Positions 5,067-23,964 of a stretch of DNA of 64,000 nt are shown here, piece by piece. Made by a program: the position numbers and the translations under genes. Position 1 is the stretch's first letter. Every line of letters starts with the position of its first letter. Source of the DNA: a bacterium (GTDB taxonomy: Bacteria > Myxococcota_A > Bradymonadia > UBA7976 > UBA1532). The DNA is taken from contig JAUHYW010000060.1 of assembly GCA_030426085.1 (NCBI GenBank), positions 1-64,000 of the forward strand, written 5' to 3'. Under the pieces are notes generated by a model. It worked only from the letters and a program-made list of their open reading frames with translations. It was not told the origin of the DNA and ran no database searches.

Positions 5067-6119
5067 ATGGCCGACGAACCGCTCTTCATCCGGGCCTGCC
5101 GCAGCGAGCCGACCGAGCGCACCCCCATCTGGCTGATGCGTCAGGCGGGGCGCTACATGGCCGACTATCGCGCCATCCGGAAGAAGCACGACTTCTGGAC
5201 GGTCTGCCAGACGCCCGAGCTGGCCTGCGAGGTCACCCTCCAGCCGATCGAGGCGTTCGGCTTCGACGCCTCGATCGTGTTCAGCGACCTGCTCATCCCG
5301 CTGCCGCCGATGGGGGCCCCGGTGCGCTTCGCCAAGGGCATGGGGCCGGTCATCGAGAAGCCGGTCGAGACCCCGGCCGACGTCGACGCGCTGCGCCGCA
5401 TCGCCCCCGAAGAGGTGGGCTACGTCGCCGAGGCCATCAAGCTGATCGTGGCCGCGCTGCCGGCCGACGTGCCGCTCATCGGCTTCTCGGGGGCCCCGTT
5501 CACGCTGTCGAGCTACCTCATCGAGGGCGGCGGCTCGAAGCATTACATGAAGACCAAGGCGTTCTTGCACCAGGAGCCGGCGGCGGCTCACAAGCTCTTC
5601 GGGCTGCTCGCCGAGGTCTCGGCCGACATCCTGTGCATGCAGATCGAGGCCGGCTGCCGGGCGGTCCAGATCTTCGACTCGTGGGCCGGCTGCCTCGACC
5701 CGGTCGACTTCGACATCTGGAGCGGGGCCTACATCAAGCAGATGGTCGAGAGCATCCGCGCCCGGCACCCCGAGGTGCCGATCATCGCCTTCCCCAAAGG
5801 CACGGGCACCTACATCGAGAAGGTCGCCGACACCGGGGCCGACGTGGTCGGCGTCGACTGGACGCTGCCGCTCGAAGAGGCCCGCCGCCGGGTGGGGCGG
5901 GGGGTGGCGGTGCAGGGCAACCTCGACCCCGGCCGCCTGCTCGGCCCGTGGGAGACGCTGCGCCCGGCCATCGACCGGGTGCTCGACGGCGCCGGCGATG
6001 GCACCGGGCATGTCTTCAACCTGGGGCATGGCATCTACCAACACACCCCGGTCGACACGGTGAAGCGCCTCGCGGACTATGTGAAGGGCGAGAGTCATCG
6101 CTGGCGCCAGAAGGGCTGA
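5067..6119 (+). CDS. hemE: Uroporphyrinogen decarboxylase
   Basis: 350 aa, PIWLMRQAGRYM...DLLIPLPPMG...FSGAPFTLSSYLIEGG. Canonical HemE motifs. ATG at 5067, divergent from serC. Confidence 0.9.
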   Translation: MADEPLFIRACRSEPTERTPIWLMRQAGRYMADYRAIRKKHDFWTVCQTPELACEVTLQPIEAFGFDASIVFSDLLIPLPPMGAPVRFAKGMGPVIEKPVETPADVDALRRIAPEEVGYVAEAIKLIVAALPADVPLIGFSGAPFTLSSYLIEGGGSKHYMKTKAFLHQEPAAAHKLFGLLAEVSADILCMQIEAGCRAVQIFDSWAGCLDPVDFDIWSGAYIKQMVESIRARHPEVPIIAFPKGTGTYIEKVADTGADVVGVDWTLPLEEARRRVGRGVAVQGNLDPGRLLGPWETLRPAIDRVLDGAGDGTGHVFNLGHGIYQHTPVDTVKRLADYVKGESHRWRQKG

Positions 6120-6126
6120 GGGTCCC

Positions 6127-7518
6127 ATGCGTATCGGAGTCATCGGGGGCGGCATCAGCGGCCTCGCCGCGGCCTATCGCCTGCGCCGGGCGGGGCACGA
6201 CGCGGTCGTGCTCGAGGCCGACGCCCGGGTGGGCGGCAAGATCCGCAGCGAGCGCAGCGACGGCTGGCTCGTCGAGCACGGCCCCAACGGCTTCCTCGAC
6301 AGCCGGCTGGCGATGGTGCGGCTGGCCCGGGACGTGGGGCTGTCGACCCGGCTGCACCCGGCGGACGCCTCGGCCGAGAGGCGCTACCTCTTCGTCGACG
6401 GCGCGCTGAAGGCCATCCCCCAGAGCCCGCCGGCCTTCCTGCGCAGCGACGTGCTGAGCCTCGGCGGCCGGCTGCGCATGCTGCGCGAGCCCCTCATCCC
6501 GCCCCGCAAGGCGTTCGGCGACGAGTCGGTGCACCGCTTCGCCAGCCGGCGGGTGGGGCCCGAGGCGGCCGAGAAGCTCATCGACCCGCTGGTGACCGGC
6601 ATCTACGCCGGCGACGTCGAGCGGCTGAGCCTGCCGGCGGCCTTCCCCCGGCTGCGCGCGCTCGAAGAGCAGCACGGCGGCCTGGTGCGGGGCATGCTGG
6701 CGAAGATGTTCGGCAAGCTGCGGGGCGAGGCCCCGGGCAGCGGCGGCCCCGGGGGGCCGGGGGGGCACCTGACGAGCTTCCCCGACGGCATGGGCGAGGT
6801 CATCGGGGCGCTGGTGGCCTGCATGGACGAGGCGGCGGTGCAGCCGGGGCGGCCGGTGCAGCGCATCGAGCGGGTCGGCGAGGGCCCGGGGCGCTGGCGG
6901 CTGCACGCCCCGGGCGGCGAGCCGCTGGACGTCGACGGGGTCGTGCTGTCGACCCCGGCCCCGGCCGCGGCGAAGCTGCTGGCCGGGCTGGCCCCGGCCG
7001 CGGTCCGCCCGTTGAGTGACATCCCCTATGCCCCGGCGGCGGTGGTGGCCCTCGGCTATCGGGTGATCGACCTGCCCCGCCCGCTGGACGGCTTCGGCTT
7101 CCTCATCCCCAGCCGGGAGGGGCGGGACGTGCTCGGCGTCTTGTGGTCGAGCACGATCTTCCGCGGCCGGGCCCCCGGGGGGCACGCGCTCTTGCGGTGC
7201 GTCGTCGGCGGCCGCCGGCGGCCCGACCTGCTCGCCCTCGACGACGACGCGCTGCTCGGCGCCGTGCGGGCCGATCTGGCGAAGATGCTGGGGGGCAACC
7301 TGCCCCGGCCGGCGTTTCAGCGGCTGGTGCGCTGGCCGCAGGCGATCCCCCAGTACGAGCTGGGTCACCTCGACCGCAAGGCCGCCGTCGAGGCCGCCGT
7401 GGCCCCGCTGCGGGGGGTGGTGCTGGCGAGCAACGCGCTCTACGGGGTGAGCCTCGCCGACTGCGCGGCGCGGGCCGAGGCGATCCCCGACGCGATGGCC
7501 GCGGCCCTGCGGCGGTGA
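6127..7518 (+). CDS. hemY: Protoporphyrinogen oxidase (FAD-dependent, HemY type)
   Basis: N-terminal MRIGVIGGGISGLAAAY FAD dinucleotide-binding fold. 463 aa. Directly downstream of hemE. Confidence 0.85.
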   Translation: MRIGVIGGGISGLAAAYRLRRAGHDAVVLEADARVGGKIRSERSDGWLVEHGPNGFLDSRLAMVRLARDVGLSTRLHPADASAERRYLFVDGALKAIPQSPPAFLRSDVLSLGGRLRMLREPLIPPRKAFGDESVHRFASRRVGPEAAEKLIDPLVTGIYAGDVERLSLPAAFPRLRALEEQHGGLVRGMLAKMFGKLRGEAPGSGGPGGPGGHLTSFPDGMGEVIGALVACMDEAAVQPGRPVQRIERVGEGPGRWRLHAPGGEPLDVDGVVLSTPAPAAAKLLAGLAPAAVRPLSDIPYAPAAVVALGYRVIDLPRPLDGFGFLIPSREGRDVLGVLWSSTIFRGRAPGGHALLRCVVGGRRRPDLLALDDDALLGAVRADLAKMLGGNLPRPAFQRLVRWPQAIPQYELGHLDRKAAVEAAVAPLRGVVLASNALYGVSLADCAARAEAIPDAMAAALRR

Positions 7519-7681
7519 CTCGGGGCCCCGTCCCCCCGCCCGGTCGGCGGCCGGCTCATGACAGCCCGGTGACAACGGGTATCCGGCTGCGCTATTGCCA
7601 GTGGGCGGTGGCCGTGCTACCGAAACGCAAACCTGTCGCCGATCCCGCGGGGTCCGCGGCACGCACGCAAGCCGAGAGGCC

Positions 7682-8281
7682 ATGGCAGTCCACGTCAAGA
7701 TCCTGATCGTCGACGATGACCGGGACATCTGCGAATACATGACCACGATGCTGGAGACCACCGGCTACGAGGTCTCCACGCTGTCCGACCCCACCAAGGC
7801 GGTCGACGCGATCCGCAACGACGAGTTCCACCTGCTCATCGTCGACCTGATGATGCCCCGGATGGACGGCATCGAGCTGATCCAGCACATCCGCAAGGTC
7901 GACAGCGACGTCGCCATCGTGGTCTTCACCGGCTACCCCTCGGTCGAGACGGCGGTCGACGCGCTGAAGCTCAACGTCTCGGACTATGTCAAAAAGCCCT
8001 TCGACATCAACGAGTTCCGCGAGAAGATCGCCCTGATCCTCAAGAAGAAGGGCCTGCTGACCAACCCCGAGGAGGAGCTGCACAAGGCGGTGGGCAAGAC
8101 CATCCGCCGCATCCGCAAGGAGCACGGGCTGACCCTCAAGCAGCTCTCCCGCCGCACCAGCCTCTCGGTCAGCCTGCTCAGCCAGATCGAGCGGGCCGAG
8201 TCCAGCGCGTCGGTCAGCTCGCTGTACAAGATCGCGGTGGCGCTCGGGGTCCGGCTGACGACGCTCTTCGGCGAGTTCTGA
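7682..8281 (+). CDS. Response regulator: receiver domain fused to XRE/Cro-type HTH
   Basis: ILIVDDDRDICEYM...LLIVDLMMPRMDG...VVFTGY is a REC domain with phospho-acceptor Asp. The C-terminus KEHGLTLKQLSRRTSLSVSLLSQIERAESSASVSSLYKIAVALGV is an HTH_XRE. Confidence 0.8.
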   Translation: MAVHVKILIVDDDRDICEYMTTMLETTGYEVSTLSDPTKAVDAIRNDEFHLLIVDLMMPRMDGIELIQHIRKVDSDVAIVVFTGYPSVETAVDALKLNVSDYVKKPFDINEFREKIALILKKKGLLTNPEEELHKAVGKTIRRIRKEHGLTLKQLSRRTSLSVSLLSQIERAESSASVSSLYKIAVALGVRLTTLFGEF

Positions 8282-8290
8282 GCCCGGCGG

Positions 8291-8310
8291 CCGGCGGCGC
8301 CGCCGGCCCA
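8291..8310. promoter_or_regulatory. Perfect GC palindrome (gccggcggcgccgccggc) between the regulator and the MMPL gene
   Basis: Seen in sequence. Possible attenuator/hairpin or protein-binding site. No U-tract follows. Confidence 0.3.
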
Positions 8311-8386
8311 TCCGCCCGGGCATCTTTCCGGCGACGCCGCCGCGCGGTATACCGAGCACACCGGAGTCTGCCGAGCGGAGGCGCGC

Positions 8387-10711
8387 ATGGCCGAAAGCGG
8401 CACCCGGCTCGGCCGGCTGTGGGTCGGGCTGATCGTCCGCCAGCCGTTCGTGGCCATCCTGCTGGGGCTGCTCATCGTCGCCGCCCTCGGCCCCGGCGTG
8501 CGCCACCTGCGGGCCGAGTTCACCTACCGGGTCTGGTTCGGCGAGGGCGACCCGCTGCTCGCCGCGTTCGACGACTTCGAGCGCACCTTCGGCAACGACC
8601 AGTCGGCCATCGTGCTGGTCAACAGCCCCTCGGGCATCTTCGACGTCGAGTCGGCGACCCTGCTGCGCGAGCTGACCGAGAAGATGTGGACCGCGCCCGA
8701 TGTGATCCGGGTCGACTCGCTGGCCAACTTCAACTGGGTGCACGACGAGGACGGCGACATGGTCGTCGAGCCGCTCATCCCCGACATCGGGCCGCTCGAC
8801 GCCGAGGTGCTCGCCGAGCGGCAGAAGGTGGCTCTGGAACACGAGCTGGTGCCGGGCTACCTGGTCGGCACCAACGCCCGGACGGCCGTGATCTACGCCC
8901 GGCTTCAGCCCAAGCTGGACGGGGTGGCCGACTTCCCCGAGCTCATCGCGGGCATCGACGCCATCATCGACGGCTTCCGGGGGCGGGGCGACCACCGGTT
9001 CTACATCACCGGCTCGCCGATGGTGGCCTACAGCTTCCGCGAGGCGGCCCAGAGCGACGTGCGCTCGATATTGCCCATCGCCGGCGGGCTGGTGCTCTTC
9101 TGCCTCGCCTGGGCCCTGCGCCGGTTCAGCGGGGTGGCGCTGACGGTGCTGGTGCTCGCCGGCACCGCCGCGGCGACCCTGGGCGCGGCGGGCTTCCTCG
9201 ACCGCCCGATCAACAACCTCACCGCGTCGATCCCGCAGTTCCTCATCGCGATCGCCATCGCGACCGGGGTGCATGTGCTCAAACGCTTCGACCAGTTCTA
9301 TGCCCCCGGCGTCGAGCGGGCCGAGGCGGTGCGGCTGTCGCTGCACGCCAACCTGCTGCCGACGCTCTTGACCAGCCTGACCACCGCCATCGGCTTCTTG
9401 AGCTTCTCGGGGGCCGACGTCATCCCGGTGCGCGATCTGGGGGTGATCTCGGGCATCGGCACCCTGTCGGCGTGGGCCCTGACCTACCTCGTCGGCGGCG
9501 GGCTGCTGGTGCTGCTGCCGCTGAAGCCGCGCCGGCTCGAGAAGCGCCACTGGTCGTGGGGCGCCCGGGCGGCCCGCGTCCTCGCCCGGCGCAAGGGCTG
9601 GATCCTGGCGGGCTACGTCGGGGTCACCGCGTTCGCGATCTGGCTGGCGCTGTCGCTGAAGGTCGACTCGGACTACTTCGCCTACTTCGCCGATGAGGCC
9701 CCGATCAACGTCGCCACCCAGCGGCTCGAGACCGACGTCGGCGGCGGGCTGGCGGTGGAGATGGTCATCGACACCGGGGAGAAGGGCGGCATCAAGGATC
9801 CGGACTTCCTGCGCCGGGTCGACCGCTTCGCCGACTGGCTGCGCACCCAGGACTACGTCACCAGCGCGGTGTCGGTGGTGGACTTCCTCAAGGCGACCAA
9901 CCGCACCCTCGAGGGGGGGGCCGACGCCGCCTACCGCCTGCCCGAGACCCGGGAGGCGGTGGCCCAGCAGTACCTGCTGTACACCATGAGCCTGCCCCAG
10001 GGCATGGACCTCAACGACCGGGTGAGCATCGACGAGTCGGCCATCCGGCTGACCTCGCTGTGGCGGCTGCACAACTCGCTGGCGGTGCTGCCCGAGCTCG
10101 AGCGCATCGAAGCCGAGGCCGAGGCGGCGGGGCTGGACGTGGTGTCGACCGGCAAGAACCTGCTGCTCTTGCAGATGAACCCGTACGTGGTCGACACCTT
10201 CGTGACCTCGGTGGGCATCGCGCTGCTGACGGTGAGCCTGCTGCTGATGATGGTGCTGCGCTCGATCAAGCTGGGGGCGCTGGCCATGATCCCCAACATG
10301 ATCCCGCTGCTCTTCGGGGCGGCGCTCATCGCGGCGCTGGGGCAGAGCCTCGACATCGGCACCATCGTCGCCTTCGGGGTCTGCCTGGGCATCGCGGTGG
10401 ACGACACGGTGCACTTCCTGTCCCACTACGACGAGTATCGCCGCTCGGGTCTGTCGCCGCTGGATTCGGTGGCCCGCATCTTCGACCGCACGATGCCGGC
10501 CCTGGTGACCACCACGGTGACCCTGGTGATCGCGTTCGGCGTCTTCGCCTTCTCGTCTTTCGTGCCCAACCGCATGTTCGGCCTGCTGGTGGCCTTCATC
10601 CTCGTCGTCGCGCTGACCACCGATATGTTCCTGCTGCCGGCGCTGATGCTGCGGCGGGACGCCGGCGCGACCCCTGCGAACCCGAACCCCGGGAGCGAAC
10701 CCCACCGATGA
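8387..10711 (+). CDS. MMPL/RND-superfamily exporter (HpnN-like lipid transporter family)
   Basis: 774 aa with two hydrophobic TM blocks each preceded by a large periplasmic loop. Typical MMPL/SSD organisation. Confidence 0.8.
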   Translation: MAESGTRLGRLWVGLIVRQPFVAILLGLLIVAALGPGVRHLRAEFTYRVWFGEGDPLLAAFDDFERTFGNDQSAIVLVNSPSGIFDVESATLLRELTEKMWTAPDVIRVDSLANFNWVHDEDGDMVVEPLIPDIGPLDAEVLAERQKVALEHELVPGYLVGTNARTAVIYARLQPKLDGVADFPELIAGIDAIIDGFRGRGDHRFYITGSPMVAYSFREAAQSDVRSILPIAGGLVLFCLAWALRRFSGVALTVLVLAGTAAATLGAAGFLDRPINNLTASIPQFLIAIAIATGVHVLKRFDQFYAPGVERAEAVRLSLHANLLPTLLTSLTTAIGFLSFSGADVIPVRDLGVISGIGTLSAWALTYLVGGGLLVLLPLKPRRLEKRHWSWGARAARVLARRKGWILAGYVGVTAFAIWLALSLKVDSDYFAYFADEAPINVATQRLETDVGGGLAVEMVIDTGEKGGIKDPDFLRRVDRFADWLRTQDYVTSAVSVVDFLKATNRTLEGGADAAYRLPETREAVAQQYLLYTMSLPQGMDLNDRVSIDESAIRLTSLWRLHNSLAVLPELERIEAEAEAAGLDVVSTGKNLLLLQMNPYVVDTFVTSVGIALLTVSLLLMMVLRSIKLGALAMIPNMIPLLFGAALIAALGQSLDIGTIVAFGVCLGIAVDDTVHFLSHYDEYRRSGLSPLDSVARIFDRTMPALVTTTVTLVIAFGVFAFSSFVPNRMFGLLVAFILVVALTTDMFLLPALMLRRDAGATPANPNPGSEPHR

Positions 10712-11382
10712 TCGATCCGTTGACCCTCGACGAGCTGCGCGAAGACTACGGGGCCACCCCCCGGCGCATCGACACCCGGCTGCTGCCGCTCACCCGCATC
10801 GCGACCGGCCCCAAGCAGCCGTTCCCCACCGTGAAGCTGCTGGTGATGAGCGCGCTGGTCTACGGGGCGGGGGTCGGCATCTGCCTGGCCCTCGACGAGC
10901 GCCCCGAGCTGGGCATGATGCTGGCCGCCCCCATCTGGATGGGCATCGGCATCGGCATGATCCGGGCCGCCTCGCCCTCGGCCCGCACCGGCAAGCTGCT
11001 CGAGACGGCGACCCTGGTCGAGGGCCGGGCGATCAAGGCCCACGGGCGGCTGTACCAGCCGGGGGACGAGCCCGAGGTCGCGGCGGTGGCCTTCAGCACG
11101 TCCGAGGATCACCGCTTCGACCGGCTGTATCTGCGGGACGTCGTCAAGAAGGTGCGCGCGGCGGCCGAGGCGAAGACCCCCCCGGCCGAGCTGGCCGATG
11201 TGGCCGCCCGGGTCGACGCCGACGGGCCGCCGGTGAAGGTGCCCTCGTCGGTCGCCCCCGACGGCGAGACCTGGGTCGCCCGGGTGATCGTGGATCCCAA
11301 GCGGCTGCCCGAGGCGAAGCTGGTCGATCACGCGGTGCCGCTGCTGGTGCGGCCGGCCGAGGGGCTGGCGGCTCACGTCTGA
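10708..11382 (+). CDS. Membrane protein of unknown function (2 TM + soluble domain)
   Basis: ATGA start/stop overlap with the MMPL gene. TM helices LLVMSALVYGAGVGICLAL and LAAPIWMGIGIGMI. Confidence 0.5.
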   Translation: MIDPLTLDELREDYGATPRRIDTRLLPLTRIATGPKQPFPTVKLLVMSALVYGAGVGICLALDERPELGMMLAAPIWMGIGIGMIRAASPSARTGKLLETATLVEGRAIKAHGRLYQPGDEPEVAAVAFSTSEDHRFDRLYLRDVVKKVRAAAEAKTPPAELADVAARVDADGPPVKVPSSVAPDGETWVARVIVDPKRLPEAKLVDHAVPLLVRPAEGLAAHV

Positions 11383-12713
11383 TGGGGGTCGATCTGCCCG
11401 GTCCCCGGGGCACGCTGCGCCCGCTGCTGGCGTTCAACGCCGATCCGGTCGGCTGCCTGCGGCGGTGGCACGCCGAGTTCGGGGACGTCGTCGGGCTGCG
11501 GATCGCCTCGATCCAGTTGGTGTCGCTGCGGGGCGCCGACGACGTGGCGGCGGTGCTGCTCGACCGGCAGCAGGCGTTCGTCAAGGACGCCTTCACCCGC
11601 GGGCTGTCCCGGGTCCTGGGGCAGGGGCTCCTGACCAGCGAGGGGGCCCACTGGCGCGGGCGGCGCAAGCTCATCGCGCCGACGCTGCGCCGGTCCCACA
11701 TCCGTCATTACGCCGAGGTCTTCGTGGCCCACGCCCGCCGCTGGGTCGAGCGGGTCGAGGGCGAGGTCGACCTGCACCACGAGATGATGGGCCTGACCCT
11801 GGGCATCGTCGCCGAGGGGCTGTTTGCCGCCGAGCAGGCGGCCGACGTCGATCGGGTGGGCGCGCTGGTCGAGCAGATCATGGCGGCCCACATCCAGACC
11901 GAGCGGAGCTGGCAGATGGTGCTGCCGGCGTGGCTGCCGCTCTCCCCGAAGTGGCGCATCGATCGGGCGGCGGCGGGGGTGACCGCGCTGATCGATCGGC
12001 TGATCGCCGAGCGGCGGTCCCGGCCCCCGGGCGACGATCTGCTGTGGCGGCTGCTCGAGGCCCGGGGCGAGGGCGGGCACGCGCTCGACGCCGAGGGGCT
12101 GCGCGACGAGTCGGCGACGCTGTTTCTGGCGGGGCACGAGACGACCGCCCTGGCGCTGACGTTCGCGGTGGAGCTGCTCGGGCGCCACCCGGACGCGATG
12201 GGCCGGCTGCGGGCCGAGGTGGCCGCGCTGGGCGACCGCCTGCCGACGGCCGACGACATGCCGGCCCTGGCCTGGACCGCGGCGGTAATCAAGGAGGCGA
12301 TGCGGCTCTACCCGCCGGCGTGGGTCATCGGCCGGGAGTCGGTGAAGCCGGTGGCGATCGGCGAGCACACGCTGCCCGCGGGGGCGACGGTGCTGGTCCC
12401 GATCGACGCGATGCACCGGGACCCGGCCCGCTTCCCCGACCCGGGGGTCTTCCGCCCCGAGCGCTGGCTCGACGGCGCGCCGCGCGGCCGCTGGGACTAC
12501 CTGCCGTTCGGCGGCGGGGCCCGGGTGTGCGTGGGCAACCACTTCGCGCTGATGGAGGCGGTGCTGGTGCTGGCCACGATGGTCCGGGGGGCCCGCTTCG
12601 AGCTGCTGCGCCCGACGCCGCCCCGCCTGATGGCCTCGATCACCCTTCGTCCGGTGGACGGTCTGCCGGTCCGGGTGACTCGAACACCCGCCGGGGCCGC
12701 AGGCTGCGAATGA
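11382..12713 (+). CDS. Cytochrome P450
   Basis: Heme-binding loop FGGGARVCVGNHFA (FxxGxRxCxG). ETxR-like EAMRLYPP. 443 aa. ATG overlaps the upstream stop (TGATG). Confidence 0.85.
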   Translation: MGVDLPGPRGTLRPLLAFNADPVGCLRRWHAEFGDVVGLRIASIQLVSLRGADDVAAVLLDRQQAFVKDAFTRGLSRVLGQGLLTSEGAHWRGRRKLIAPTLRRSHIRHYAEVFVAHARRWVERVEGEVDLHHEMMGLTLGIVAEGLFAAEQAADVDRVGALVEQIMAAHIQTERSWQMVLPAWLPLSPKWRIDRAAAGVTALIDRLIAERRSRPPGDDLLWRLLEARGEGGHALDAEGLRDESATLFLAGHETTALALTFAVELLGRHPDAMGRLRAEVAALGDRLPTADDMPALAWTAAVIKEAMRLYPPAWVIGRESVKPVAIGEHTLPAGATVLVPIDAMHRDPARFPDPGVFRPERWLDGAPRGRWDYLPFGGGARVCVGNHFALMEAVLVLATMVRGARFELLRPTPPRLMASITLRPVDGLPVRVTRTPAGAAGCE

Positions 12714-12903
12714 CGACCTCGGCGTGCGCGTCGGGGGTGTCGCACCACGCCGCGTGGTGCAGCGGGCTGTAGCCCTCGGTGCCGGTGACGCAGCCGTCGA
12801 GCCCCTCCCGCCGGATGAACTCGTCGACGTGGCGCCGGAAGTGCTCGGCGGTGCCCGCCGCCTGCCCCCCGGTGAAGTCCCAGTAGAAGCGTCGCATGAT
12901 CAT
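12640..12903 (-). CDS. Small hypothetical ORF (87 aa), convergently overlapping the P450 3' end
   Basis: MIMRRFYWDFTGG...HFRRHVDEFIRREGLDGCV. No recognisable family. Could be spurious in high-GC DNA. Confidence 0.25.
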   Translation of the reverse strand: MIMRRFYWDFTGGQAAGTAEHFRRHVDEFIRREGLDGCVTGTEGYSPLHHAAWCDTPDAHAEVVIRSLRPRRVFESPGPADRPPDEG

Positions 12904-13052: not shown

Positions 13053-15413
13053 ATGGACAACCGCCGTGAACGGGAGCTGGTGCTGGCCCCCAACGAATAC
13101 GCCTACGTGCTCGACACCACCAAGGGCCACATCAACTGCTATGTGGGCCCCAACAAGACCAGCCTGGCCCAGACCGACCAGCCGGTGGTGTTCAACAGCG
13201 GCTCGAAGCGCTTCGAGCCGGCGGTGCTCGAGGACGCGGTGCGCCTCTTCGCCACCGCCCCGGCCAACTGGTACATCGCGCTGAAGAACCCCGCCCGCGA
13301 CCGGGTGCACCCCAACCCGGGGGTGGCCAGCGTGGCCCCCGAGCTGCTCGTCGGGCTCAAGCACAACGTGCCGGGGCCGGCGGCGTTCGCCCTGTGGCCG
13401 GGGCAGATGGCGCGGGTGATCGAGGGCCACCGGCTGCGGGCCGACGAGTACCTCTACGTGCGCATCTACGACGCCGGGGCCGCCGCCGAGGCCGGCTGGC
13501 GGGCGCTGGGGCTGGCCGACGACCACGCCGAGCAGCCGCCCCGGTTCGCGGTGGGCCAGGGCTACGTGATCAAGGGCACCGACACCCGGTTCTACATCCC
13601 GCCGACCGGGGTCGAGGTCGTGCCCGAGGACGGGGGGAACTTCGTGCGGGCGGCGGTGCGGCTCGAGCGGCTGGAGTACTGCGTGCTGGTGGGCCACGAC
13701 GGCCAGCGGCGCACCATCCGGGGCGAGGCGATCGTCTTCCCCGGGCCCGACGAGCGGTTCGTGGTGCGCGAGGGGCGGCGCAAGTTCGAGGCGATCGAGC
13801 TCAGCGAGACCACCGGGCTGCACGTCAAGGTCACCGCGCCCTACACCGAGGCCGACGGCACCGCGCGCCGGGAGGGCGAGGAGCTGTTCATCACCGGCAG
13901 CGGGGTCATCTACTTCCCCCGCGACGCGCACGCGATCATCCGCCAGGGGGGCCGGGCGCTGCACCAGGCGGTGGCCATCCCCCGGGGCGAGGGGCGCTAC
14001 GTGCTGAGCCGGCACACCGGCGAGGTGGCGCTCAAGCGGGGGCCGGCGATGTTCCTGCCCGACCCCCGCCACGAGGTGATCATCCGCCGGGTGCTCGACG
14101 ACCGGGAGTGCGCGCTGCTCTTCCCGGGCAACCCCGACGCGCGGGCCTTCGGCCGGGCGGACGGGCGGCGGCCGGCGGCCGAGCCGAAGCCGGGGCGCAA
14201 GAGCCGGGGCGAGGGCGGGTCGGGCGCGCCGCTGGCGGTGGTCCGGCCGGCGTTCGAAGGGCCCCGCACGATCACCCTCGACACCCGCTACGCGGGCGCG
14301 GTGCGGGTCGACGTGCGGGCCGGCTTCGCGGTGCAGGTGGTCGACCAGAGCGGCGCCCGGCGGGTCGAGCAGGGGCCGACGGCGCTGTTGCTGGGCTACG
14401 ACGAGATGCTCCAGCCGCTGACGCTGTCCACCGGCACCCCCAAGTCCGACGCCCGCCGGCTGGAGACCGCCTACTTGCAGACCACCGGCAACAAGGTCGG
14501 CGACCGGCTGCTGCTGGTGACCCGGGATCAGGTCCGGGCCGAGCTGACCCTGGCCTATCGGGTCGACTTCGACGGCCCGCCCGAGCGGTGGTTCGCCGTC
14601 GAGGACTACGTCAAGCTGCTGTGCGACCACGCCGGCTCGATGATCAAGGCCCGGGCCCGCAAGCTGGACGTCGTGGCGTTGCAGGGCGACCTGACCCCGG
14701 TGGTGCGGGATCTCATCCTGGGGCCCCGGGGCGAGGGCGGCGAGCGGCCGGGGCTGGGGTTCTCCGAGAACGGCATGCGGGTCTACGACGTGGAGGTGCT
14801 CGCGCTCGAGATCGTCGACGAGGCGGTGCGGGCGCTGCTCGACGAGGCTCAGCTCGACGCGATGCAGCAGGCGCTGGCGGTGGGCGCCCGGGAGGCCGAG
14901 GTGGCCCGCCGACAGCGGCTGGAGGACGCCGAGCGGGCGCTGGATCGGGCGCTGGACGAGACCGCCGCGCTGCGGGCGGGCATCGCCGCCGAGCAGGCCC
15001 GCCGGGGCCATACCGAGGCCACCGCCGAGCGGGAGCGGCGGCTGGCCCTGGCCCGGATGGAGGCCGAGCAGGACCGGCTCGAGCTGGAGGCCGAGCTGGC
15101 GCTGCGGGCCCGGCGGCTGGCGGCAGAGGAGGCCGAGGACGCCGCCCGGCTCGAGAGCCGGCGGGCGAAGCAGGCGCTCGACCTGGAGGCGCTCGCCGCC
15201 CGGGTCGAGGGCGCGGTGCGGGCGGCGCAGGCGTTCGACCCCCACGTCGTGCACGCGGTCAACCGCCTCGGCGACCAGCAACTCGCCGCCGCCCTGGCCG
15301 AGAACTTCGGCGAGCTGGCGGCGGTGGAGGGCCGGGGGCTCTTGGAGACCGCCCGCAAGTTCCTCGACTTCGTGCCCGCCAGCCTCATGCCCCAGCTCCG
15401 CGAGCCGGGCTGA
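13053..15413 (+). CDS. Major vault protein (MVP) homolog: MVP repeat domains + SPFH-like shoulder + coiled-coil cap-helix
   Basis: N-terminus LAPNEYAYVLDTTKGHINCYVGPNKTSL... parallels MVP repeat 1 ([26 protein letters not shown]). Shoulder region LAYRVDFD...FAVEDYVKLLCDHAGSMIKARARKLDVVAL parallels MVP LAYNWHFE...[27 protein letters not shown]. The C-terminal ~150 aa is an Ala/Arg/Glu-rich coiled coil like the vault cap-helix. Confidence 0.75.
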   Translation: MDNRRERELVLAPNEYAYVLDTTKGHINCYVGPNKTSLAQTDQPVVFNSGSKRFEPAVLEDAVRLFATAPANWYIALKNPARDRVHPNPGVASVAPELLVGLKHNVPGPAAFALWPGQMARVIEGHRLRADEYLYVRIYDAGAAAEAGWRALGLADDHAEQPPRFAVGQGYVIKGTDTRFYIPPTGVEVVPEDGGNFVRAAVRLERLEYCVLVGHDGQRRTIRGEAIVFPGPDERFVVREGRRKFEAIELSETTGLHVKVTAPYTEADGTARREGEELFITGSGVIYFPRDAHAIIRQGGRALHQAVAIPRGEGRYVLSRHTGEVALKRGPAMFLPDPRHEVIIRRVLDDRECALLFPGNPDARAFGRADGRRPAAEPKPGRKSRGEGGSGAPLAVVRPAFEGPRTITLDTRYAGAVRVDVRAGFAVQVVDQSGARRVEQGPTALLLGYDEMLQPLTLSTGTPKSDARRLETAYLQTTGNKVGDRLLLVTRDQVRAELTLAYRVDFDGPPERWFAVEDYVKLLCDHAGSMIKARARKLDVVALQGDLTPVVRDLILGPRGEGGERPGLGFSENGMRVYDVEVLALEIVDEAVRALLDEAQLDAMQQALAVGAREAEVARRQRLEDAERALDRALDETAALRAGIAAEQARRGHTEATAERERRLALARMEAEQDRLELEAELALRARRLAAEEAEDAARLESRRAKQALDLEALAARVEGAVRAAQAFDPHVVHAVNRLGDQQLAAALAENFGELAAVEGRGLLETARKFLDFVPASLMPQLREPG

Positions 15414-15596
15414 TCGGCCCGGCGGGGCCCGACACCCGCAAATGCTCTTCGGTTGACGGGACAAGTGGTGTCCGCCGCCGGTCATCCGTTACATTCCTCA
15501 TATGCTGGCTCGGGCGCGGCGGCTGCCCGTCCGGCCGGAGGATGGAGCGCAAGGGGAGTGATGCAGGGCGGAGAGCATGCCCGCGGCGGCAGGAAG

Positions 15597-18500
15597 ATGG
15601 CGGCGCTGGCGCTGGCGATGGTCGGCCTGGCGCTGGGCTGCGGGGATCCCGAGGCCCTGGACCCGCCGCTCGAGCCCGACGCGGCGCTGTGCGGTTCGGG
15701 CTTCGACACGGTCGGCGATGAGTGCGTCGACATCGACGAGTGCGCGGCCGACCCCGGCCCGTGCGACGCGCGCACCACCTGCATCAACCTGCGCGGCGGC
15801 TTCTCGTGCGGCGCGTGCCCCGAGGGCTACGTGGGCGACGGGCTCGTCGACGGCGAGGGGTGCACCCTCGACTGCCCGCCGGGGCAGGCCGACGGCGGCG
15901 GCGGGCGGTGCGCGCCCCGGGGCACCTGCAATCCGGGCTACGAGCCGGGCCCCGACGGCGGCTGCGCGCCGCTGCAATGCCCGCCCGATCAGCACTTCGA
16001 CGGGGCCGAGGGCTGCGTGCCGCTCGGCGAGTGCGCCCCGGGGTTCGCGCCGGACGACGCGGGGGACTGCGTGGCCGGGCCGTGCCCCGCCGGTGAGCAC
16101 GACGACGGGACCGGGGCCTGCGCGCCGGAGGGCGAGTGCGCCGAGGGCTACCGGCTCGACGCGGCCGGCGACTGCGCGCCGCTGCCCGAGTGCCCCGAGG
16201 GCGAGCACCCGATCGGCGACGGGTCGTGCGGCCCCGCGGGCACCTGCGTCGATGGCTACGCGCTCGACGCCCAGGGCGACTGCCGCCCGCTGAGCTGCCC
16301 CGAGGACGACCCCCGCGAGCCGGACGACACCCCCGCCGAGGCCGACCCGCTGACCCCCGACGAGGCGGTGATCGGCGTCGCCTGCCCCGATGATCCGGAT
16401 CACTTCGCGCTGGACCCCGGCGCCCGCTGCCGGGTGGTGGCGGCCCTCACGGCGGTGGGATCCGAGCCGCTCGAGGCCGCGCTGACCCTGGTCGACGAGG
16501 GCGGGCGGCTGCTGACCGACGCCCCGGGGGGCGAGGCCCGCCTCGAGGTGGCCGGGCCGCTCTTCGCGGCGGTCGCGGGGGCCGGGCTGTACCGATTGCA
16601 GGTGCGATTCGAGGGCCACGATGGGGGCGACGGGGCCTGCGTCGAGCTCGGCGTGTGCTCTCCGGGCTACGCCGAGGACGACGCCGGGGCCTGCACGCGG
16701 TGCGCGGCCGGCTTCCGTGATGGGGGCGGCGGGGCCTGCGTGCCGCTGGGGGCCTGCGCGCCGGGCTTCGCGCTCGACCTGGACGGGTCGTGCCGGCAGA
16801 CGGCCGCGTGCCCGCCCGGCGCCCGGGACGACGGGGCCGGCGACTGCGCGCCCGACGGCGACCCCTGCGCCCCGGGCTTCGGCGACGACGGGGCCGGCGG
16901 CTGCGCCCCGCCGGGGGTCTGCGCGGCGGGCTTCGTGCTCGACGTGCTCGACCGCTGCCGGATGGCGACCGCGTGCCCCGTCGGCGAGCGCGACACCGGG
17001 GACGGCGCGTGCGGCGGGCCGTGCGCGTCGGGCTATCACGGCGGGGGCGGCGAGCCCGGGATCTGCCTGCCGGCGGGCGACTGCGCGCCGGGCTGGGTCG
17101 AGCGGGGGGACGGGACCTGCGACCGGGCCTGCCTCGGCGGCCTGGAGCGGGCCGGCGCGGTCTGTGTCGAGGACTTCACCTGCCCGGCGGACGACGGGAC
17201 CGAGGTGGACGAGCCGCGGGAGCTGAGCCCGGGGGCCAGCAAGTACGGGGTCGTGTGCCCGGGGGACGCCGACCGCTTCCGCCTCGCGCCGCCCACCGGC
17301 TGCGGGGTGCGCTTCATCTTGCGCTTCGACCCCGCCGAGGGGCCGCTGGTGCTCGAGGTCGGGGCCGAGGCGGCGCCGGCGACCGGCCGGGACGCGCCCG
17401 AGGGGCAGCGGCTGGTCGTCGAGGGGGTCGTCGGGCCGCTGGCGGTGCGGGTCCGGGGGGCCGACGACGAGGCCGGGGCCCGCTACGCGCTGCGGGTCGA
17501 CCTCGACGGCCACGACGGGGGCGACGGGACCTGCCAGCCGCTGGGGGCCTGCGCGGTGGGCTACGCGCTCGCGGCGGACGACAGCGGGGCCTGTGATCGC
17601 TGCGCGCCGGGCTTCGAGGACGGGGACGGCGGCGCGCCGGGCGTCGTCTGCGTGCCCGAAGGGGACTGCGCCGAGGGCTTCCACGACGGCGGCGACGGCG
17701 TCTGCGTGCCGGACGATCGCTGCGCGCCGGGCTTCGCGGACGGGGACGGCGACCGCCCGGGCATCGTCTGCGTGCCCGAGGGCACCTGCGCGGCGGGCTT
17801 CCACGACGGGGGCGACGGGGGCTGCGTGCCGGTCGACGCCTGCGCCGAGGGCTTCCACGACGGCGACGGCGCGGGCCCGGGCACCGTCTGCGTGCCCGAG
17901 GGGGCGTGCAGCGCGGGCTTCCACGACGGCGGCGACGGGGGCTGCGTGGCCCGGGGCGACTGCGCCGAGGGCTTCCACGACGGCGACGGCGCGGGGCCCG
18001 GCGACCGCTGCCTGCCGACGGGCGCGTGCCTGCGCGGGTGGCACGACGGGGGCGACGGGGTGTGCGTCGAGCGGGGGCTGTGCCGCGAGGGCTACCTCGA
18101 CCGGGGCGACGGGGTGTGCGTCGAGAACCTCTTGTTCGGCACCGTCTGCGCGCCGGGCCGGGGCTTCGCCTTCGAAGACGGCGGGGTCTGCGTCTGCAAC
18201 GAGGGCACCCGCGACGGGGGCGACGGGCGCTGCGTGCCGGAGGGCGCCTGCTCGCCCGGCTTCCGCCCCGACGCGCCGGAGACCGACGATCAGGGCGAGG
18301 CGCCGGCCTGCGCCCCGGTCGGGATCTGCGCCGCGGGGCACCACTCGACGCCGTGGGGGGCGTGCCGACCGACGGCGGCCTGCCCCGCGGGCGAGCGGGA
18401 CGACGGCATCGGGGCCTGCGTGCCCGAGGTGGCCGGCTGCGCCGACGGGTTCGCCGTCCGGGGCGAGGTGTGCGCCGCGCCGCCGGCCTGCGGGCCGGGG

Positions 18501-19736
18501 CACCACGACGCCGGCGACGGGACCTGCGCCCCGATCGGCGGCTGCGCCGACGGATTCCGACCGTCGGCGGCGGGCTGCGTGCCCCAGGGCCCGTGCAGCC
18601 CGCCCTCCGACTTCGCCGCCGGGCCCCCGATCGAGGTGGGGCCGCCGGTGGCCGGGGTGGCCTGCGGGCCGGACGTCTGGCGCTTCGACACCCCCCGGGG
18701 CTGCGGGGTCGAGGCCCGGCTGGTGGCCGATCCGGCGGCCGGCGCGGTCGACCTCGAGCTGTTCGACGCCGACGAGGCCCTGGTCGCGCGGGTCGAGGCG
18801 CTCGACGGCACCGCCCGCCTGTGGCTGCCGCCGGGCGAGCCCCGCCAGCTCCACCTGCGGGTGACGCCCTACCCCCCCGGCGCGGTCGATCCGGTGCCCT
18901 ATCGGCTGGCGCTCGTGGCCGATCCGCTGCGCTGCATGGCGGTCTGCCCGTTCGACCAGCGCCCCGACGGCGGCGGGCGCTGCGTGGACTTCGAGGCCGA
19001 CTGCGCCCCCGGCTGGCACGAGGGCGGGGACGGGGCCTGCGTGCCGCTCGATCGCTGCACCCCGGGCTTCCACGACGGGGGCGACGGGGTCTGCGTGCCG
19101 TTCGACGTCTGCCGCCCGGGGTATCGACTCACCGCCGAGCTGACCTGCGCCGCGGTCACCGCCGACTGTCCGCCGGGCGAGCGGGACAACGGCGGCGGTG
19201 TCTGCGCCCTCACCTGCGCCGTCGGGCAGGGCTACCACGAGGGCGGCGACGGCACCTGCGTGGCGACGCCCTACTGCGTGGCGGGCTACGCCGACGACGG
19301 CGGCGGGCTGTGCGTCGCCCGGACGCCGGAGGCCGAGTGCGCCCCGGACGTCTTCGAGGCCCGGCCCGACGGCGACGGCCTGTGCCTGCTGGTGCGCTGC
19401 ACCGACCTGGACGACGACACCGACGCGCTCGCCGAGGCGCTGCCGCTCGACGTGCGCCCCGGCGAGCCGACCGTGGTCTACGGGTCGCTGTGCCTGGCCG
19501 ACCCCGGCGACTGGTATCGGGTGGGCGGGGGCCACCTGCGGGCCCGCTTGCGCTTCGACCACGCCGACGGCGACCTGCGGCTGCGCTTCCTCGACGCCAA
19601 CGGGCTCGAGCTCGCCGCGGCCGACAGCGCCGATGACGACGAGGTGCTCGGGCTGCCCGGGGCCCCGGCCGAGGTCATCGTCGAGGTCACCGGGGAGAGC
19701 AGCGTCGGCTATCGGCTCGATCTGGTCCGGGATTGA
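15597..19736 (+). CDS. Giant Cys-rich repeat lipoprotein: lipobox, cbEGF-like domain, >40 Myxococcus-type Cys-rich repeats, four PPC-like beta-sandwich domains
   Basis: MAALALAMVGLALGC is a lipobox. CVDIDECAADPGPCDARTTCINLRGGFSCGACPEGY is a Ca-binding EGF. Repeated CxPGFxDGGDGxCVPxGxC units follow. There are four ~100-aa Cys-poor modules (e.g. GSLCLADPGDWYRVGGGHLRARLRFDHADGDLRLRFLDANG) with the D-x-D-x-Y/W-R PPC-like signature. Confidence 0.8.
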   Translation: MAALALAMVGLALGCGDPEALDPPLEPDAALCGSGFDTVGDECVDIDECAADPGPCDARTTCINLRGGFSCGACPEGYVGDGLVDGEGCTLDCPPGQADGGGGRCAPRGTCNPGYEPGPDGGCAPLQCPPDQHFDGAEGCVPLGECAPGFAPDDAGDCVAGPCPAGEHDDGTGACAPEGECAEGYRLDAAGDCAPLPECPEGEHPIGDGSCGPAGTCVDGYALDAQGDCRPLSCPEDDPREPDDTPAEADPLTPDEAVIGVACPDDPDHFALDPGARCRVVAALTAVGSEPLEAALTLVDEGGRLLTDAPGGEARLEVAGPLFAAVAGAGLYRLQVRFEGHDGGDGACVELGVCSPGYAEDDAGACTRCAAGFRDGGGGACVPLGACAPGFALDLDGSCRQTAACPPGARDDGAGDCAPDGDPCAPGFGDDGAGGCAPPGVCAAGFVLDVLDRCRMATACPVGERDTGDGACGGPCASGYHGGGGEPGICLPAGDCAPGWVERGDGTCDRACLGGLERAGAVCVEDFTCPADDGTEVDEPRELSPGASKYGVVCPGDADRFRLAPPTGCGVRFILRFDPAEGPLVLEVGAEAAPATGRDAPEGQRLVVEGVVGPLAVRVRGADDEAGARYALRVDLDGHDGGDGTCQPLGACAVGYALAADDSGACDRCAPGFEDGDGGAPGVVCVPEGDCAEGFHDGGDGVCVPDDRCAPGFADGDGDRPGIVCVPEGTCAAGFHDGGDGGCVPVDACAEGFHDGDGAGPGTVCVPEGACSAGFHDGGDGGCVARGDCAEGFHDGDGAGPGDRCLPTGACLRGWHDGGDGVCVERGLCREGYLDRGDGVCVENLLFGTVCAPGRGFAFEDGGVCVCNEGTRDGGDGRCVPEGACSPGFRPDAPETDDQGEAPACAPVGICAAGHHSTPWGACRPTAACPAGERDDGIGACVPEVAGCADGFAVRGEVCAAPPACGPGHHDAGDGTCAPIGGCADGFRPSAAGCVPQGPCSPPSDFAAGPPIEVGPPVAGVACGPDVWRFDTPRGCGVEARLVADPAAGAVDLELFDADEALVARVEALDGTARLWLPPGEPRQLHLRVTPYPPGAVDPVPYRLALVADPLRCMAVCPFDQRPDGGGRCVDFEADCAPGWHEGGDGACVPLDRCTPGFHDGGDGVCVPFDVCRPGYRLTAELTCAAVTADCPPGERDNGGGVCALTCAVGQGYHEGGDGTCVATPYCVAGYADDGGGLCVARTPEAECAPDVFEARPDGDGLCLLVRCTDLDDDTDALAEALPLDVRPGEPTVVYGSLCLADPGDWYRVGGGHLRARLRFDHADGDLRLRFLDANGLELAAADSADDDEVLGLPGAPAEVIVEVTGESSVGYRLDLVRD

Positions 19737-21687: not shown

Positions 21688-22974
21688 TCACTCCGCGAAG
21701 GCCAGATCGCGCAGCAGCAGCGCGATGTCGGGGAAGGCGATGATCAGCACCGAGGACAGCGCGAGCAAGGCGATGAACGGCGGCGTGCCCCGGATGACCT
21801 CGAGGTAGGGCTTTCGGAACACCGCGATGGCGGTGAAGATGTCGCAGCCGAAGGGCGGGGTCGCCGAGCCGATGGCCACCTGGAGGGTCACCACCGTGCC
21901 GACGAGCACCGGGTCGATGCCCGCCTGGACCGCCACCGGGTGGAAGATCGGGGCCAGGATCAGGATCACCACGATCGGGTCGACGAACATGCAGCCGACG
22001 AAGAACGCCAGCGCGATGGTCGCCATCAGGACCGGGTAGCTGCTGTCGGCGCCGATGCCCAGCCCGCTGATGAGCGCGGTGGGCAGATCGGCGAACGAGA
22101 TGACCCACGAGAACGCCGCCCCGGCGCCGACGAGCACGAAGACCACCCCGGTGACGAGGCCGGTGTCCCGGGCGATGGCCGGCAGGTCGCTCAGCTTCAA
22201 CTGGCGGTAGATCCCGACCTCGAGGATGGCCGCGTACAGCACCGAGACCGCCGCCGCCTCGGTGGGGCTGAAGAAGCCGGCGTAGATGCCCCCGATGATG
22301 ATCACCGGGAAGCCCATCGGCAGCGAGGCCCGGCCGAGGGCCTTCATCCGGCCCCGCCAGTCGACCCGCGCCTCGGACTCGATGCCCAGCCGCACCGCGG
22401 CGGCGTAGCAGTAGCCGCAGAACAGCACGAGGATGAGCAGCCCCGGGCCGATGCCGGCGATGAACAGCTCGCCGATCGAGGTGCCCGTGACCACCCCGTA
22501 GACGATCATGCCGATGCTCGGCGGGATGAGCAGCGCGATGTCGCTGGCGTTGATGATCAGGGCGGTGGCGAAGCTGTCGGGGTAGCCCCGGGCGACCATG
22601 CGCGGGCGCAGCGGCCCGCCGATGGCCACCACCGTCGCCTGGGTCGAGCCGGAGAGCGCGCCGAACAGGGTGCAGGCCACCGCGCTGGTGATCGGCAGCC
22701 CGCCCCGCAGGTGGCCCATGAAGGCCCCGATGAGGTCCAGCAGGCGGTCGGCGGCCTGGCCCCGGGTCATGATCTCGGCGGCCAGGATGAACATCGGCAC
22801 CGCGATGAGGGCCGCCGGCTGCACCCCCCCGATCATCTGCTGCACCAGCACCGCCGGGTCGACCCCGGGGAACCAGCCGAGCAGCGCGACGAGCGCGGCG
22901 AGCAGCAGGGGCACCAGCATCGGCACCCCCAGCAGCAGGAAGACCAGCATGACGCCCAGCAGCATCCAGCTCAT
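21688..22974 (-). CDS. dctM: TRAP transporter large permease (DctM)
   Basis: 428 aa polytopic, canonical DctM sequence features. Confidence 0.9.
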   Translation of the reverse strand: MSWMLLGVMLVFLLLGVPMLVPLLLAALVALLGWFPGVDPAVLVQQMIGGVQPAALIAVPMFILAAEIMTRGQAADRLLDLIGAFMGHLRGGLPITSAVACTLFGALSGSTQATVVAIGGPLRPRMVARGYPDSFATALIINASDIALLIPPSIGMIVYGVVTGTSIGELFIAGIGPGLLILVLFCGYCYAAAVRLGIESEARVDWRGRMKALGRASLPMGFPVIIIGGIYAGFFSPTEAAAVSVLYAAILEVGIYRQLKLSDLPAIARDTGLVTGVVFVLVGAGAAFSWVISFADLPTALISGLGIGADSSYPVLMATIALAFFVGCMFVDPIVVILILAPIFHPVAVQAGIDPVLVGTVVTLQVAIGSATPPFGCDIFTAIAVFRKPYLEVIRGTPPFIALLALSSVLIIAFPDIALLLRDLAFAE

Positions 22975-22984
22975 CGGCGCCTCC

Positions 22985-23536: not shown

Positions 23537-23561
23537 CTCCCCGCGGGCCCGGCGGCCCGCG

Positions 23562-23963
23562 TCAGTCGTCGTCGGCCCTCGCGGGCGGTGCGGGGTAGGC
23601 CCCGTCGGGGCCGTGCACCTCGCGCCCGGTCACCGGCGGGTTGAAGACACACACCATGCGCATCCGCTCGTCGGCGAACAGCGTGTGGTGGTCGTGGGCG
23701 TCGAGCGCGTAGAGCGTGCCCGGCGCGATGGCGTGCCGCTCGCCGGTGGCGTGGTCTTCGATCCAGCCCCGGCCCTCGACGCAGTAGACCGCCTCGAGGT
23801 GGTGCTTGTAGTGCATCTCGAGCGGCGCGCCGGGGTGGATGAGCGTGTCGTGCACCGAGAAGCCCATCCCGGCGTCGGCCAGCAGCAGCCGGCGGCTGGT
23901 CCACTGCTTCGCCGAGACCTCGCGGTCGGTGCCGACGATGTCGTCGAGGCGGACGAGCTTCAC
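23562..23963 (-). CDS. ectC: L-ectoine synthase
   Basis: 133 aa cupin. [19 protein letters not shown] and [13 protein letters not shown] align to EctC metal/substrate motifs. Confidence 0.9.
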
Positions 23964-23964
23964 C

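Follow-up and report, generated by a model that had tools for sequence, protein, structure and literature searches.

A candidate operon of an MMPL-type pump, a 224-residue membrane protein and a cytochrome P450, of composite origin, in a member of the Bradymonadia

The subject of this analysis is a 64-kb window of bacterial DNA (positions 1 to 64,000 of contig JAUHYW010000060.1, GenBank assembly GCA_030426085.1; Myxococcota_A, Bradymonadia), and within it a run of plus-strand genes that an earlier sequence-only reading had taken for one translationally coupled operon headed by a response regulator. We favor, with somewhat more confidence than doubt, a smaller, self-contained operon at 8325-12713, composed of genes for an MMPL-type pump, a membrane-anchored protein of 224 aa and a cytochrome P450, which would be an evolutionary composite serving the oxidation and transport of a hydrophobic compound. 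Reading frames were picked by their third-position GC content (GC3) in this DNA of ~72% G+C, and four high-GC3 open reading frames (ORFs) were found on the plus strand, at 7595/7682-8281, 8387-10711, 10708-11382 and 11382-12713. The identities proposed earlier for their products, namely a receiver (REC) domain joined to an XRE-type helix-turn-helix (HTH), an MMPL/RND transporter, a protein with two transmembrane segments (2-TM) and a P450, all on the same strand, were borne out by Pfam searches, the ORFs and hydropathy. The two reported overlaps were also found by direct reading at 10708-10711 and 11380-11384: the ATG of the 224-aa gene at 10708-10710 lies on the TGA of the pump gene at 10709-10711 (ATGA), and the TGA of the 224-aa gene at 11380-11382 lies on the ATG of the P450 gene at 11382-11384 (TGATG). 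The sequence-level statements of that reading are confirmed, and its interpretation is supported in part. The features of the proposed operon are as follows:

8325-8354, plus strand: promoter-like element of the MMPL gene; TTTCCG (8325-8330), a 17-nt variable spacer and TATACC (8348-8353).
8387-10711, plus strand: MMPL/RND inner-membrane transporter of 774 aa (Pfam MMPL), first gene of the operon.
10708-11382, plus strand: 224-aa protein with a putative cytoplasmic N terminus, a 2-TM hairpin and a cytoplasmic C-terminal domain of a beta-barrel plus helices.
11382-12713, plus strand: soluble cytochrome P450 of 443 aa (Pfam p450, PF00067, 230.3 bits), last gene of the operon.
12640-12897, minus strand: ankyrin-repeat-like protein of 85 aa, convergent, overlapping the 3' end of the P450 gene by 74 nt.

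Overlaps of start and stop codons are frequent in bacterial operons. Close homologs of the 224-aa protein number only 12 among 5.8 billion proteins, and the contigs that carry them are the lineages used here for the comparison of junctions, promoter and gene order; loci and homologous proteins are given by their L and P numbers. The ATGA junction is kept at seven loci in six lineages, i.e., in every sampled lineage with both the MMPL and the 224-aa genes, and the TGATG junction at six loci in four lineages, i.e., in all lineages that bear the P450. Because they are conserved across six and four lineages, respectively, the overlaps are regarded as real gene junctions. At its 3' end the operon is bounded by the convergent 85-aa gene on the minus strand, and a scan for promoters and terminators inside the MMPL-224-aa-P450 unit found no consensus of either. 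The earlier proposal that the three co-oriented genes make up a single unit is thus supported by the conserved overlaps, by the promoter-like element and by the closing convergent gene. As judged from these features the three genes form a credible operon, the translation of which should be coupled, and roughly stoichiometric, through the ATGA and TGATG overlaps.

The intergenic DNA upstream of the MMPL gene is otherwise poorly conserved, the invariant exception being the palindromic GGTATACCG (8346-8354), which encloses the TATACC hexamer and is unchanged in six lineages. A T-rich hexamer (TTTCCG in the window, TTGACT in L098) stands at a constant 16-17 nt upstream of TATACC in six lineages, and the layout of the hexamer and GGTATACCG is the same whatever gene precedes the MMPL gene. 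The motif GGTATACC is found a single time in the 64-kb window, where 0.14 occurrences would be expected. Two short conserved blocks at a fixed spacing around a free spacer are read as a sigma-70-type promoter. We infer a promoter or operator role for the 8325-8354 element, and 8325-12713 would form one transcription unit with its own promoter-like element.

The pump is placed in Pfam MMPL (PF03176) at 63.3 bits against a cut-off of 20.5, over two stretches, and its gene is preceded by a ribosome-binding site (GGAGG, 6 nt before the ATG). Hydropathy places helices at residues ~20-38, 225-377, 406-424 and 606-751, and loops at ~39-224 and 425-605. The best match among the NCBIfam models is HAE3 (TIGR00921), with 158.5 bits against a cut-off of 351.9 and hence below threshold. 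The HpnN-type class that had been assigned to the pump was not upheld, as the HpnN models (TIGR03480 and NF052374) gave 112.8 bits against 751.85 and 43.5 against 1100, and hopanoid genes (shc, hpn) were not found by Pfam among the main ORFs of the window; the MmpL3-type model NF052608 gave 20.1 bits against 1400. HpnN (Burkholderia multivorans, 5khn, and Rhodopseudomonas palustris), which takes lipids out of the inner membrane and towards the outer one, does share with the pump the RND/MMPL superfamily and the HAE3 neighborhood and provides its nearest entry in the PDB, but at an E value of only 4e-5. On these scores the pump is best described as a predicted HAE3-like hydrophobe transporter, HAE3 being its nearest family although its score lies below the HAE3 cut-off.

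Two membrane motifs of the pump were compared with those of its relatives. The TM10 motif GIAVDDTVH (residues 666-676) is invariant, and in TM4 (residues 288-296) the sequence IATGVH stands in place of the family's IADxVH throughout the clade of at least 63% identity. A pump at 63% identity (P0104) has the Thr and is followed by a ClpS-like gene, not by a 224-aa gene. This indicates that the TM4 change predates the arrival of the 224-aa gene, and the idea that the Asp-to-Thr exchange arose together with the 224-aa partner was rejected. The same gene order confines the union of MMPL and 224-aa genes to the clade of at least 71% identity.

The P450 has a complete set of motifs (AGHETT, ExxR as EAMR, FRPERW and FGGGARVCVG), placing it within PF00067. 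Its N terminus is not hydrophobic, and its one marginal segment (residues 382-400) scores 1.65 against a threshold of 1.6; it is predicted to be an intact, soluble enzyme without a convincing membrane anchor. The nearest solved structures are 7wzl, CYP97A3, CYP170A1, CYP175A1, CYP46A1 and CYP102, and the relatives of known function act on carotenoids (CYP97A3, CYP175A1), sesquiterpenes (CYP170A1), cholesterol (CYP46A1) and fatty acids (CYP102), all five of these best matches being isoprenoid, sterol or fatty-acid hydroxylases. The window P450, however, lies far below every equivalog cut-off (CYP170A1, 217 bits against 700; pentalenene oxygenase, 176 against 800; ApyO, 171 against 525), so that only the broad prediction of a hydrophobic substrate is justified.

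The P450 gene is present in the window and in L005, L001, L009/L010 and L011, and absent from L002-L004 and L098. A neighbor-joining tree of the pumps (MMPL proteins) unites in one clade the loci that bear the P450 (window, L011, P0098, L009 and L001), while in the sister L002 and in the next lineage out (P0102, the pump of L098) the MMPL and 224-aa genes are directly followed by the convergent small gene. The tree, together with the P450-less loci L002-L004 and L098, points to the P450 as a late insertion, and the MMPL-P450 pairing, which had been expected to be conserved, is confined to one small clade and lacking in its sister lineages. More distant loci were collected in a scan with the MMPL alignment over one genome per species and annotated with phmmer; among the 80 matches listed (29-48% identity), a P450 lies near the pump in two (L048 and L070), and these are 24-26% identical and belong to other families.

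The 224-aa protein has hydrophobic helices at residues 44-62 and 67-85. Pfam returned no match to it and no meaningful match to 33 scanned relatives, and a profile search of 1.84 billion representatives found only 83 relatives. The ankyrin-like protein of 85 aa is 75% identical to its ortholog in L001 and matches designed ankyrin repeats in a phmmer search of the PDB (E = 2e-7). In two more distant relatives (L099 and L100, 45-48% identity in the 224-aa protein), an acetyl-CoA-synthetase-like gene precedes the 224-aa gene, which has no MMPL, P450 or Major Vault Protein (MVP) neighbor and still stands tail to tail with a small ankyrin-like gene. On this gene order, the ankyrin-like gene is the predicted older partner of the 224-aa gene in evolution.

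MMPL homologs at 30-50% identity are widespread. At ~55 of the 80 listed loci, a LolA_like protein (PF17131) and a ~440-aa protein with a signal peptide and no assigned family are encoded beside the pump; the sources include Myxococcota, Bdellovibrionota, Acidobacteriota, Campylobacterota, Vibrio and others, and one of the homologs (P0199) is a fusion of LolA-like and MMPL parts. Among the close relatives of the window, LolA-like and 439-aa genes lie upstream of the pump gene in L001, L002, L009 and L011, and in L098 the 439-aa gene is upstream of the pump gene and the contig ends before the LolA-like position. The LolA_like protein of L001 matches PF17131 at 182.8 bits, with a weak match to DUF1329. 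The 439-aa secreted protein is probably an outer-membrane component, and by their distribution it and the LolA-like protein are the predicted ancestral partners of this MMPL pump. Neither gene was found anywhere in the 64-kb window. In L001 this module, of which the HAE3-like pump is a part, is located at 5377-7528, and an ACP-like gene of 91 aa diverges from it in L001, L002 and L009.

We propose that the operon was assembled in four steps. The starting point would have been an old and widespread envelope module of LolA-like periplasmic protein, 439-aa secreted protein and MMPL pump. A pre-existing 224-aa/ankyrin-like pair would then have joined behind the pump gene in one family-level clade of Myxococcota-like bacteria, and in a subclade the P450 gene would have been inserted between the two members of that pair. 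In this species, finally, both envelope partner genes would have been displaced from their position upstream of the pump, where a regulator cassette from the dnaB locus, bringing its own promoter, would have come to stand. Read in this way, the locus shows the stepwise assembly of an operon from unrelated pieces, followed by loss of the original neighbors.

The function of the operon is probably the oxidation and envelope transport of a hydrophobic compound. The P450 would act at the membrane's cytoplasmic face and hydroxylate a hydrophobic molecule (a lipid-, isoprenoid- or hydrocarbon-type compound), the pump would move the product or the parent compound out of the inner membrane, in the direction of periplasm and outer membrane, and the 224-aa protein may be a tether to the membrane, or an adaptor, on its cytoplasmic side. 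The earlier suggestion that a lipid or terpenoid is oxidized and exported survives in so far as the P450 is nearest to isoprenoid, sterol and fatty-acid hydroxylases and AmeABCD handles monoterpenes, but not in its appeal to HpnN.

The best-characterized HAE3 cassette of comparable build is AmeABCD of Castellaniella defragrans, in which a DUF1329/LolA-superfamily protein and an outer-membrane protein of the DUF1302 type accompany the HAE3 pump; cells deleted for it tolerate monoterpenes less well and show less dye efflux (PMC6394551). The window pump is likewise an HAE3-affiliated RND pump of ~780 aa, the resemblance being one of gene build rather than of sequence comparison with AmeD, and in the relatives of the window the pump also stands beside a LolA-superfamily protein (PF17131) and a secreted, possibly outer-membrane, protein. 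Unlike AmeABCD, the window locus has no genes for periplasmic and outer-membrane partners and does not constitute such a cassette; the 439-aa protein of the relatives has no detectable similarity to DUF1302, there is no AmeC/BNR component, and Ame has no counterpart of the 224-aa protein or the P450. Gene sets of Pseudomonas related to AmeABCD (DUF1302/DUF1329/BNR/RND) show fitness effects of their DUF1302, DUF1329 and RND genes on fatty esters and Tween 20 (bioRxiv 10.1101/2020.07.04.188060). In Thalassolituus oleivorans, TOL_3187/TOL_3188 were induced 42-fold on a C28 alkane, as determined by proteomics only (PMC6304351). This pair joins MMPL and LolA-like domains in one protein, next to which a porin-like protein without assigned domains is encoded, and it represents the same module as the one around the window's MMPL orthologs, but its LolA-like and MMPL parts are fused instead of being encoded by separate genes, and no P450 or 224-aa partner is reported. 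HAE3-type pumps with LolA-like partners thus occur in many phyla and are almost uncharacterized beyond AmeABCD-type work and one proteomic study; a pump coupled to a P450 and an unfamiliar membrane protein would provide a handle on their cargo.

Several observations weigh against a joint role of the three proteins in oxidation and transport. The LolA-like and 439-aa partners are absent from the window, and the pump may work differently here; in addition, this clade has Thr at the TM4 position that is acidic in the usual RND relay. The promoter, like co-transcription, is predicted from sequence conservation only. No redox partner of the P450 is encoded nearby, and lipid, terpene or polyketide biosynthesis genes were not found in the 64-kb window; as no biosynthetic or catabolic genes there give a clue, no substrate is indicated. 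The 224-aa family also occurs without any MMPL gene in the distant relatives L099 and L100, and the P450 is dispensable in the sister lineages, so that the data do not demand a physical or functional link among the three proteins.

These last two points bear on the strongest alternative, which we consider possible though rather unlikely: the P450, and possibly the 224-aa protein too, would be a co-transcribed passenger with an unrelated substrate, and the overlaps would reflect genome compaction. The P450 is absent from sister lineages with an otherwise identical gene order, its association with the pump in the distant loci is limited to the two unrelated cases noted above, and the partner of the 224-aa gene that is conserved over long range is the ankyrin-like gene and not the MMPL gene. 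The P450 also evolves faster, with 65-68% identity against 80% for MMPL between the same lineages. A passenger would nevertheless have to be squared with the retention of TGATG in four P450 lineages down to ~65% protein identity and of ATGA in six, and with the presence of the P450 in every sampled member of its subclade.

An improbable alternative is a role in uptake and catabolism, in which the pump, with LolA-like and porin-like partners encoded elsewhere in the genome, would import very hydrophobic nutrients such as long-chain alkanes, waxes or terpenes and the P450 would act on them first, as alkane-hydroxylating P450s carry out the first hydroxylation of an imported compound. It draws on T. 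oleivorans, in which n-C28 strongly induces both the fused TOL_3187 and the porin-like TOL_3188 (PMC6304351), on the location of AmeABCD in a monoterpene catabolic island (PMC6394551), on the Pseudomonas DUF1302/DUF1329/RND fitness effects (bioRxiv 10.1101/2020.07.04.188060) and on the lack of biosynthetic genes near the operon. The window P450, however, is not close to any NCBIfam alkane hydroxylase model and has its best matches among terpenoid oxygenases, and there are no adjacent alcohol or aldehyde dehydrogenase or beta-oxidation genes. To our knowledge, the RND pumps characterized so far export. For AmeABCD in particular, what was shown is tolerance and dye efflux and not uptake (PMC6394551).

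A more speculative form of the oxidation-and-transport reading, to which we give even less credence than to uptake, is that the 224-aa and ankyrin-like (75-85 aa) proteins constitute a new family of membrane-anchored cytoplasmic adaptors that, in this clade, would dock the soluble P450 onto an RND lipid pump in an oxidize-and-export metabolon at the inner membrane. If true, the adaptor would add to the RND/MMPL transporters a type of accessory subunit for which no description is known. Current understanding is not overturned by the locus, and its value is incremental unless the three proteins form a complex; most worth following are the 224-aa/ankyrin-like pair and the wide LolA-like+MMPL module.

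The regulator and the GC-rich hairpin that precede the pump gene had been counted as parts of the operon and of its control. The features of this upstream region are as follows:

~5080 to 6119, plus strand: uroporphyrinogen decarboxylase gene (hemE, URO-D), haem biosynthesis.
6127-7518, plus strand: protoporphyrinogen oxidase gene (hemY; TIGR00562, 283.6 bits).
7595-7623, plus strand: promoter-like element of the regulator gene; TTGCCA, 17 nt, TACCGA.
7682-8281, plus strand: response regulator of 199 aa, REC and XRE/Cro-type HTH_3 (Pfam).
8290-8307, no strand: perfect 18-nt GC palindrome GCCGGCGGCGCCGCCGGC, 9 nt after the regulator stop codon.

The 199-aa protein matches Response_reg at 104.6 bits (110 of 111 profile positions) and HTH_3 at 49.4 bits (residues 141-194). 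It carries the residues of a response regulator, with DD in VDDD, the phospho-acceptor Asp in LLIVDLMMP, T in VFTG and K in VKKPF, and has the REC-then-XRE/Cro-HTH order of DigR. Its architecture, which had been called unusual, is common in the phylum: the orthogroup comprises at least 120 clusters of at least 67% identity, 192-214 aa long and nearly all exactly 199 aa, labeled where named as Myxococcales, Myxococcota or Bradymonadia, and DigR of Myxococcus xanthus is built alike, being a REC + HTH_Xre orphan response regulator encoded beside neither its kinase nor its targets (PMC3509222). The likeness to DigR is one of two-domain architecture within the same phylum, compared by architecture and not by sequence, and the two differ in that the orthogroup of the window regulator is characteristically linked to dnaB. 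In four relatives (L094-L097, 70-92% identity) the regulator gene comes after rpsF-rpsR-rplI-dnaB, from which a small gene for a stand-alone REC domain usually separates it, and is itself succeeded by variable genes. One of these loci (L094) is on another contig of GCA_030427205.1, the genome that also carries the orthologous MMPL cluster L001, and L097 comes from the same sample as L009. A position between hemY and the MMPL gene was found only in the window and in an independent assembly of 99% identity (L005), and the occurrence of the same order in L005 rules out a mis-assembly and marks a species-level rearrangement.

The promoter-like block of the regulator, GCTATTGCCAG...GCCGTGCTACCGAA, is conserved upstream of its ortholog in L094 and L097, with partial conservation in L095 and L096, and is kept although the gene upstream of it differs in these loci; we infer that 7595-7623 is the promoter of the regulator and moved along with the gene. 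By its dnaB linkage on other contigs, including one within the same genome, and by its own promoter-like element, the regulator is a predicted separate transcription unit, recently relocated and not a conserved part of the MMPL system, contrary to its proposed membership in the operon. The lesson for annotation is that an adjacent regulator is not to be taken as the regulator of the operon. On its left side, the rearrangement has its breakpoint after the hemY stop at 7518 and before ~7555-7590, where similarity to the dnaB-linked loci begins, and hemE and the protoporphyrinogen oxidase gene stand directly upstream of the relocated cassette. Only short repeats at chance level were found in a search for flanking repeats or mobile-element traces around it, and no histidine kinase gene lies beside the regulator in the window or in the four relatives. 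Matches to the DigR operator TAATC-N14-GATTA with up to three mismatches are at chance level, and 8282-8386 contains none of them; DigR-type control upstream of the MMPL gene was rejected on this basis. Assignment of the upstream amine-oxidase-type gene to HpnE/CrtI was also rejected, as it scores 283.6 bits as protoporphyrinogen oxidase and 57 against 283 as HpnE, and so was a sterol, hopanoid or carotenoid locus, the upstream genes being those of haem biosynthesis and no cyclase or terpene synthase being found in the window.

A GC palindrome is indeed present between the regulator and the pump gene, but at 8290-8307 and not at 8291-8310 as had been reported, and it sits where the relocated cassette meets the promoter region of the MMPL gene. 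With imperfect pairing included, the hairpin spans 8282-8321 (-30.4 kcal/mol). The window has 70 loci with a perfect hairpin of at least 7 bp in the stem, and dinucleotide shuffles have 72.8 +/- 7.8; for stems of at least 8 bp the numbers are 24 and 25; the fold of the 131-nt intergenic region compared with shuffles gives z = 0.18. Only AUCUUUCC lies 3' of the hairpin, with no U-tract, and a terminator scan of the window did not call it. An Rfam search of the regulator-MMPL spacer gave no match at the gathering threshold or at E <=1, and a known RNA element there was rejected. Homologous sequence is lacking in the relatives compared, the sole relative that shares the junction being 99% identical. 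The hairpin therefore does not have the U-tract, above-chance occurrence or conservation of an attenuator or terminator, and with the MMPL promoter-like element located downstream of it the earlier attenuator proposal is unsupported; if the hairpin has any role, it would be to end the transcript of the regulator before the MMPL promoter is reached. The palindrome's arm at 8292-8306 can pair at 93% with 8328-8342, overlapping the putative -35 hexamer and spacer of the MMPL promoter, and this may be mere GC-rich low complexity.

Neither the regulator nor the GC hairpin is demonstrably part of the operon system. The complete model of the sequence-only reading, an HpnN-type exporter operon under the adjacent REC-HTH_XRE regulator by way of an attenuator hairpin, can point to a regulator that two independent assemblies place 105 nt upstream in the same orientation and to a strong GC hairpin with alternative pairing of one arm, but is very improbable given regulator orthologs that lie apart from the MMPL cluster in every other lineage, even within one genome, separate conserved promoter-like elements for regulator and pump, a hairpin of chance frequency with neither Rfam match nor conservation, missed HpnN thresholds and no DigR-type operator in the intergenic region.

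Downstream of the operon, and divergent from the ankyrin-like gene, a homolog of the Major Vault Protein is encoded at 13053-15413 on the plus strand (MVP_shoulder, 56 bits; Vault_3, 28.6 bits). It is 84% identical to its ortholog in L001, and in this clade the gene always lies just downstream of the 224-aa/ankyrin-like pair. Bacterial MVP homologs, including one of Enhygromyxa salina, have been reported and not characterized (bioRxiv 10.1101/872010). A PADLOC search with the MMPL, 224-aa, P450, ankyrin-like and MVP-like proteins gave no match, and a defense island was rejected. The MVP gene is followed at 15453-19736 (plus strand) by a gene for a secreted EGF_CA protein of 1427 aa, the length of which ranges from 1240 to 1427 aa across the clade. 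A minus-strand block at ~21688-27387, with the TRAP transporter genes DctM and DctQ, ectoine synthase and an aspartokinase-type gene, separates this gene from a Cu2_monoox_C gene (27436-28881); the two are adjacent in L001, which makes the block an insertion or rearrangement relative to L001. Further downstream are two divergent genes of the citrate synthase family, at 36159-37280 (minus strand) and 37345-38517 (plus strand), and in the product of one of them the citrate synthase domain is preceded by a fused N-terminal MerR/HTH_17 DNA-binding domain.

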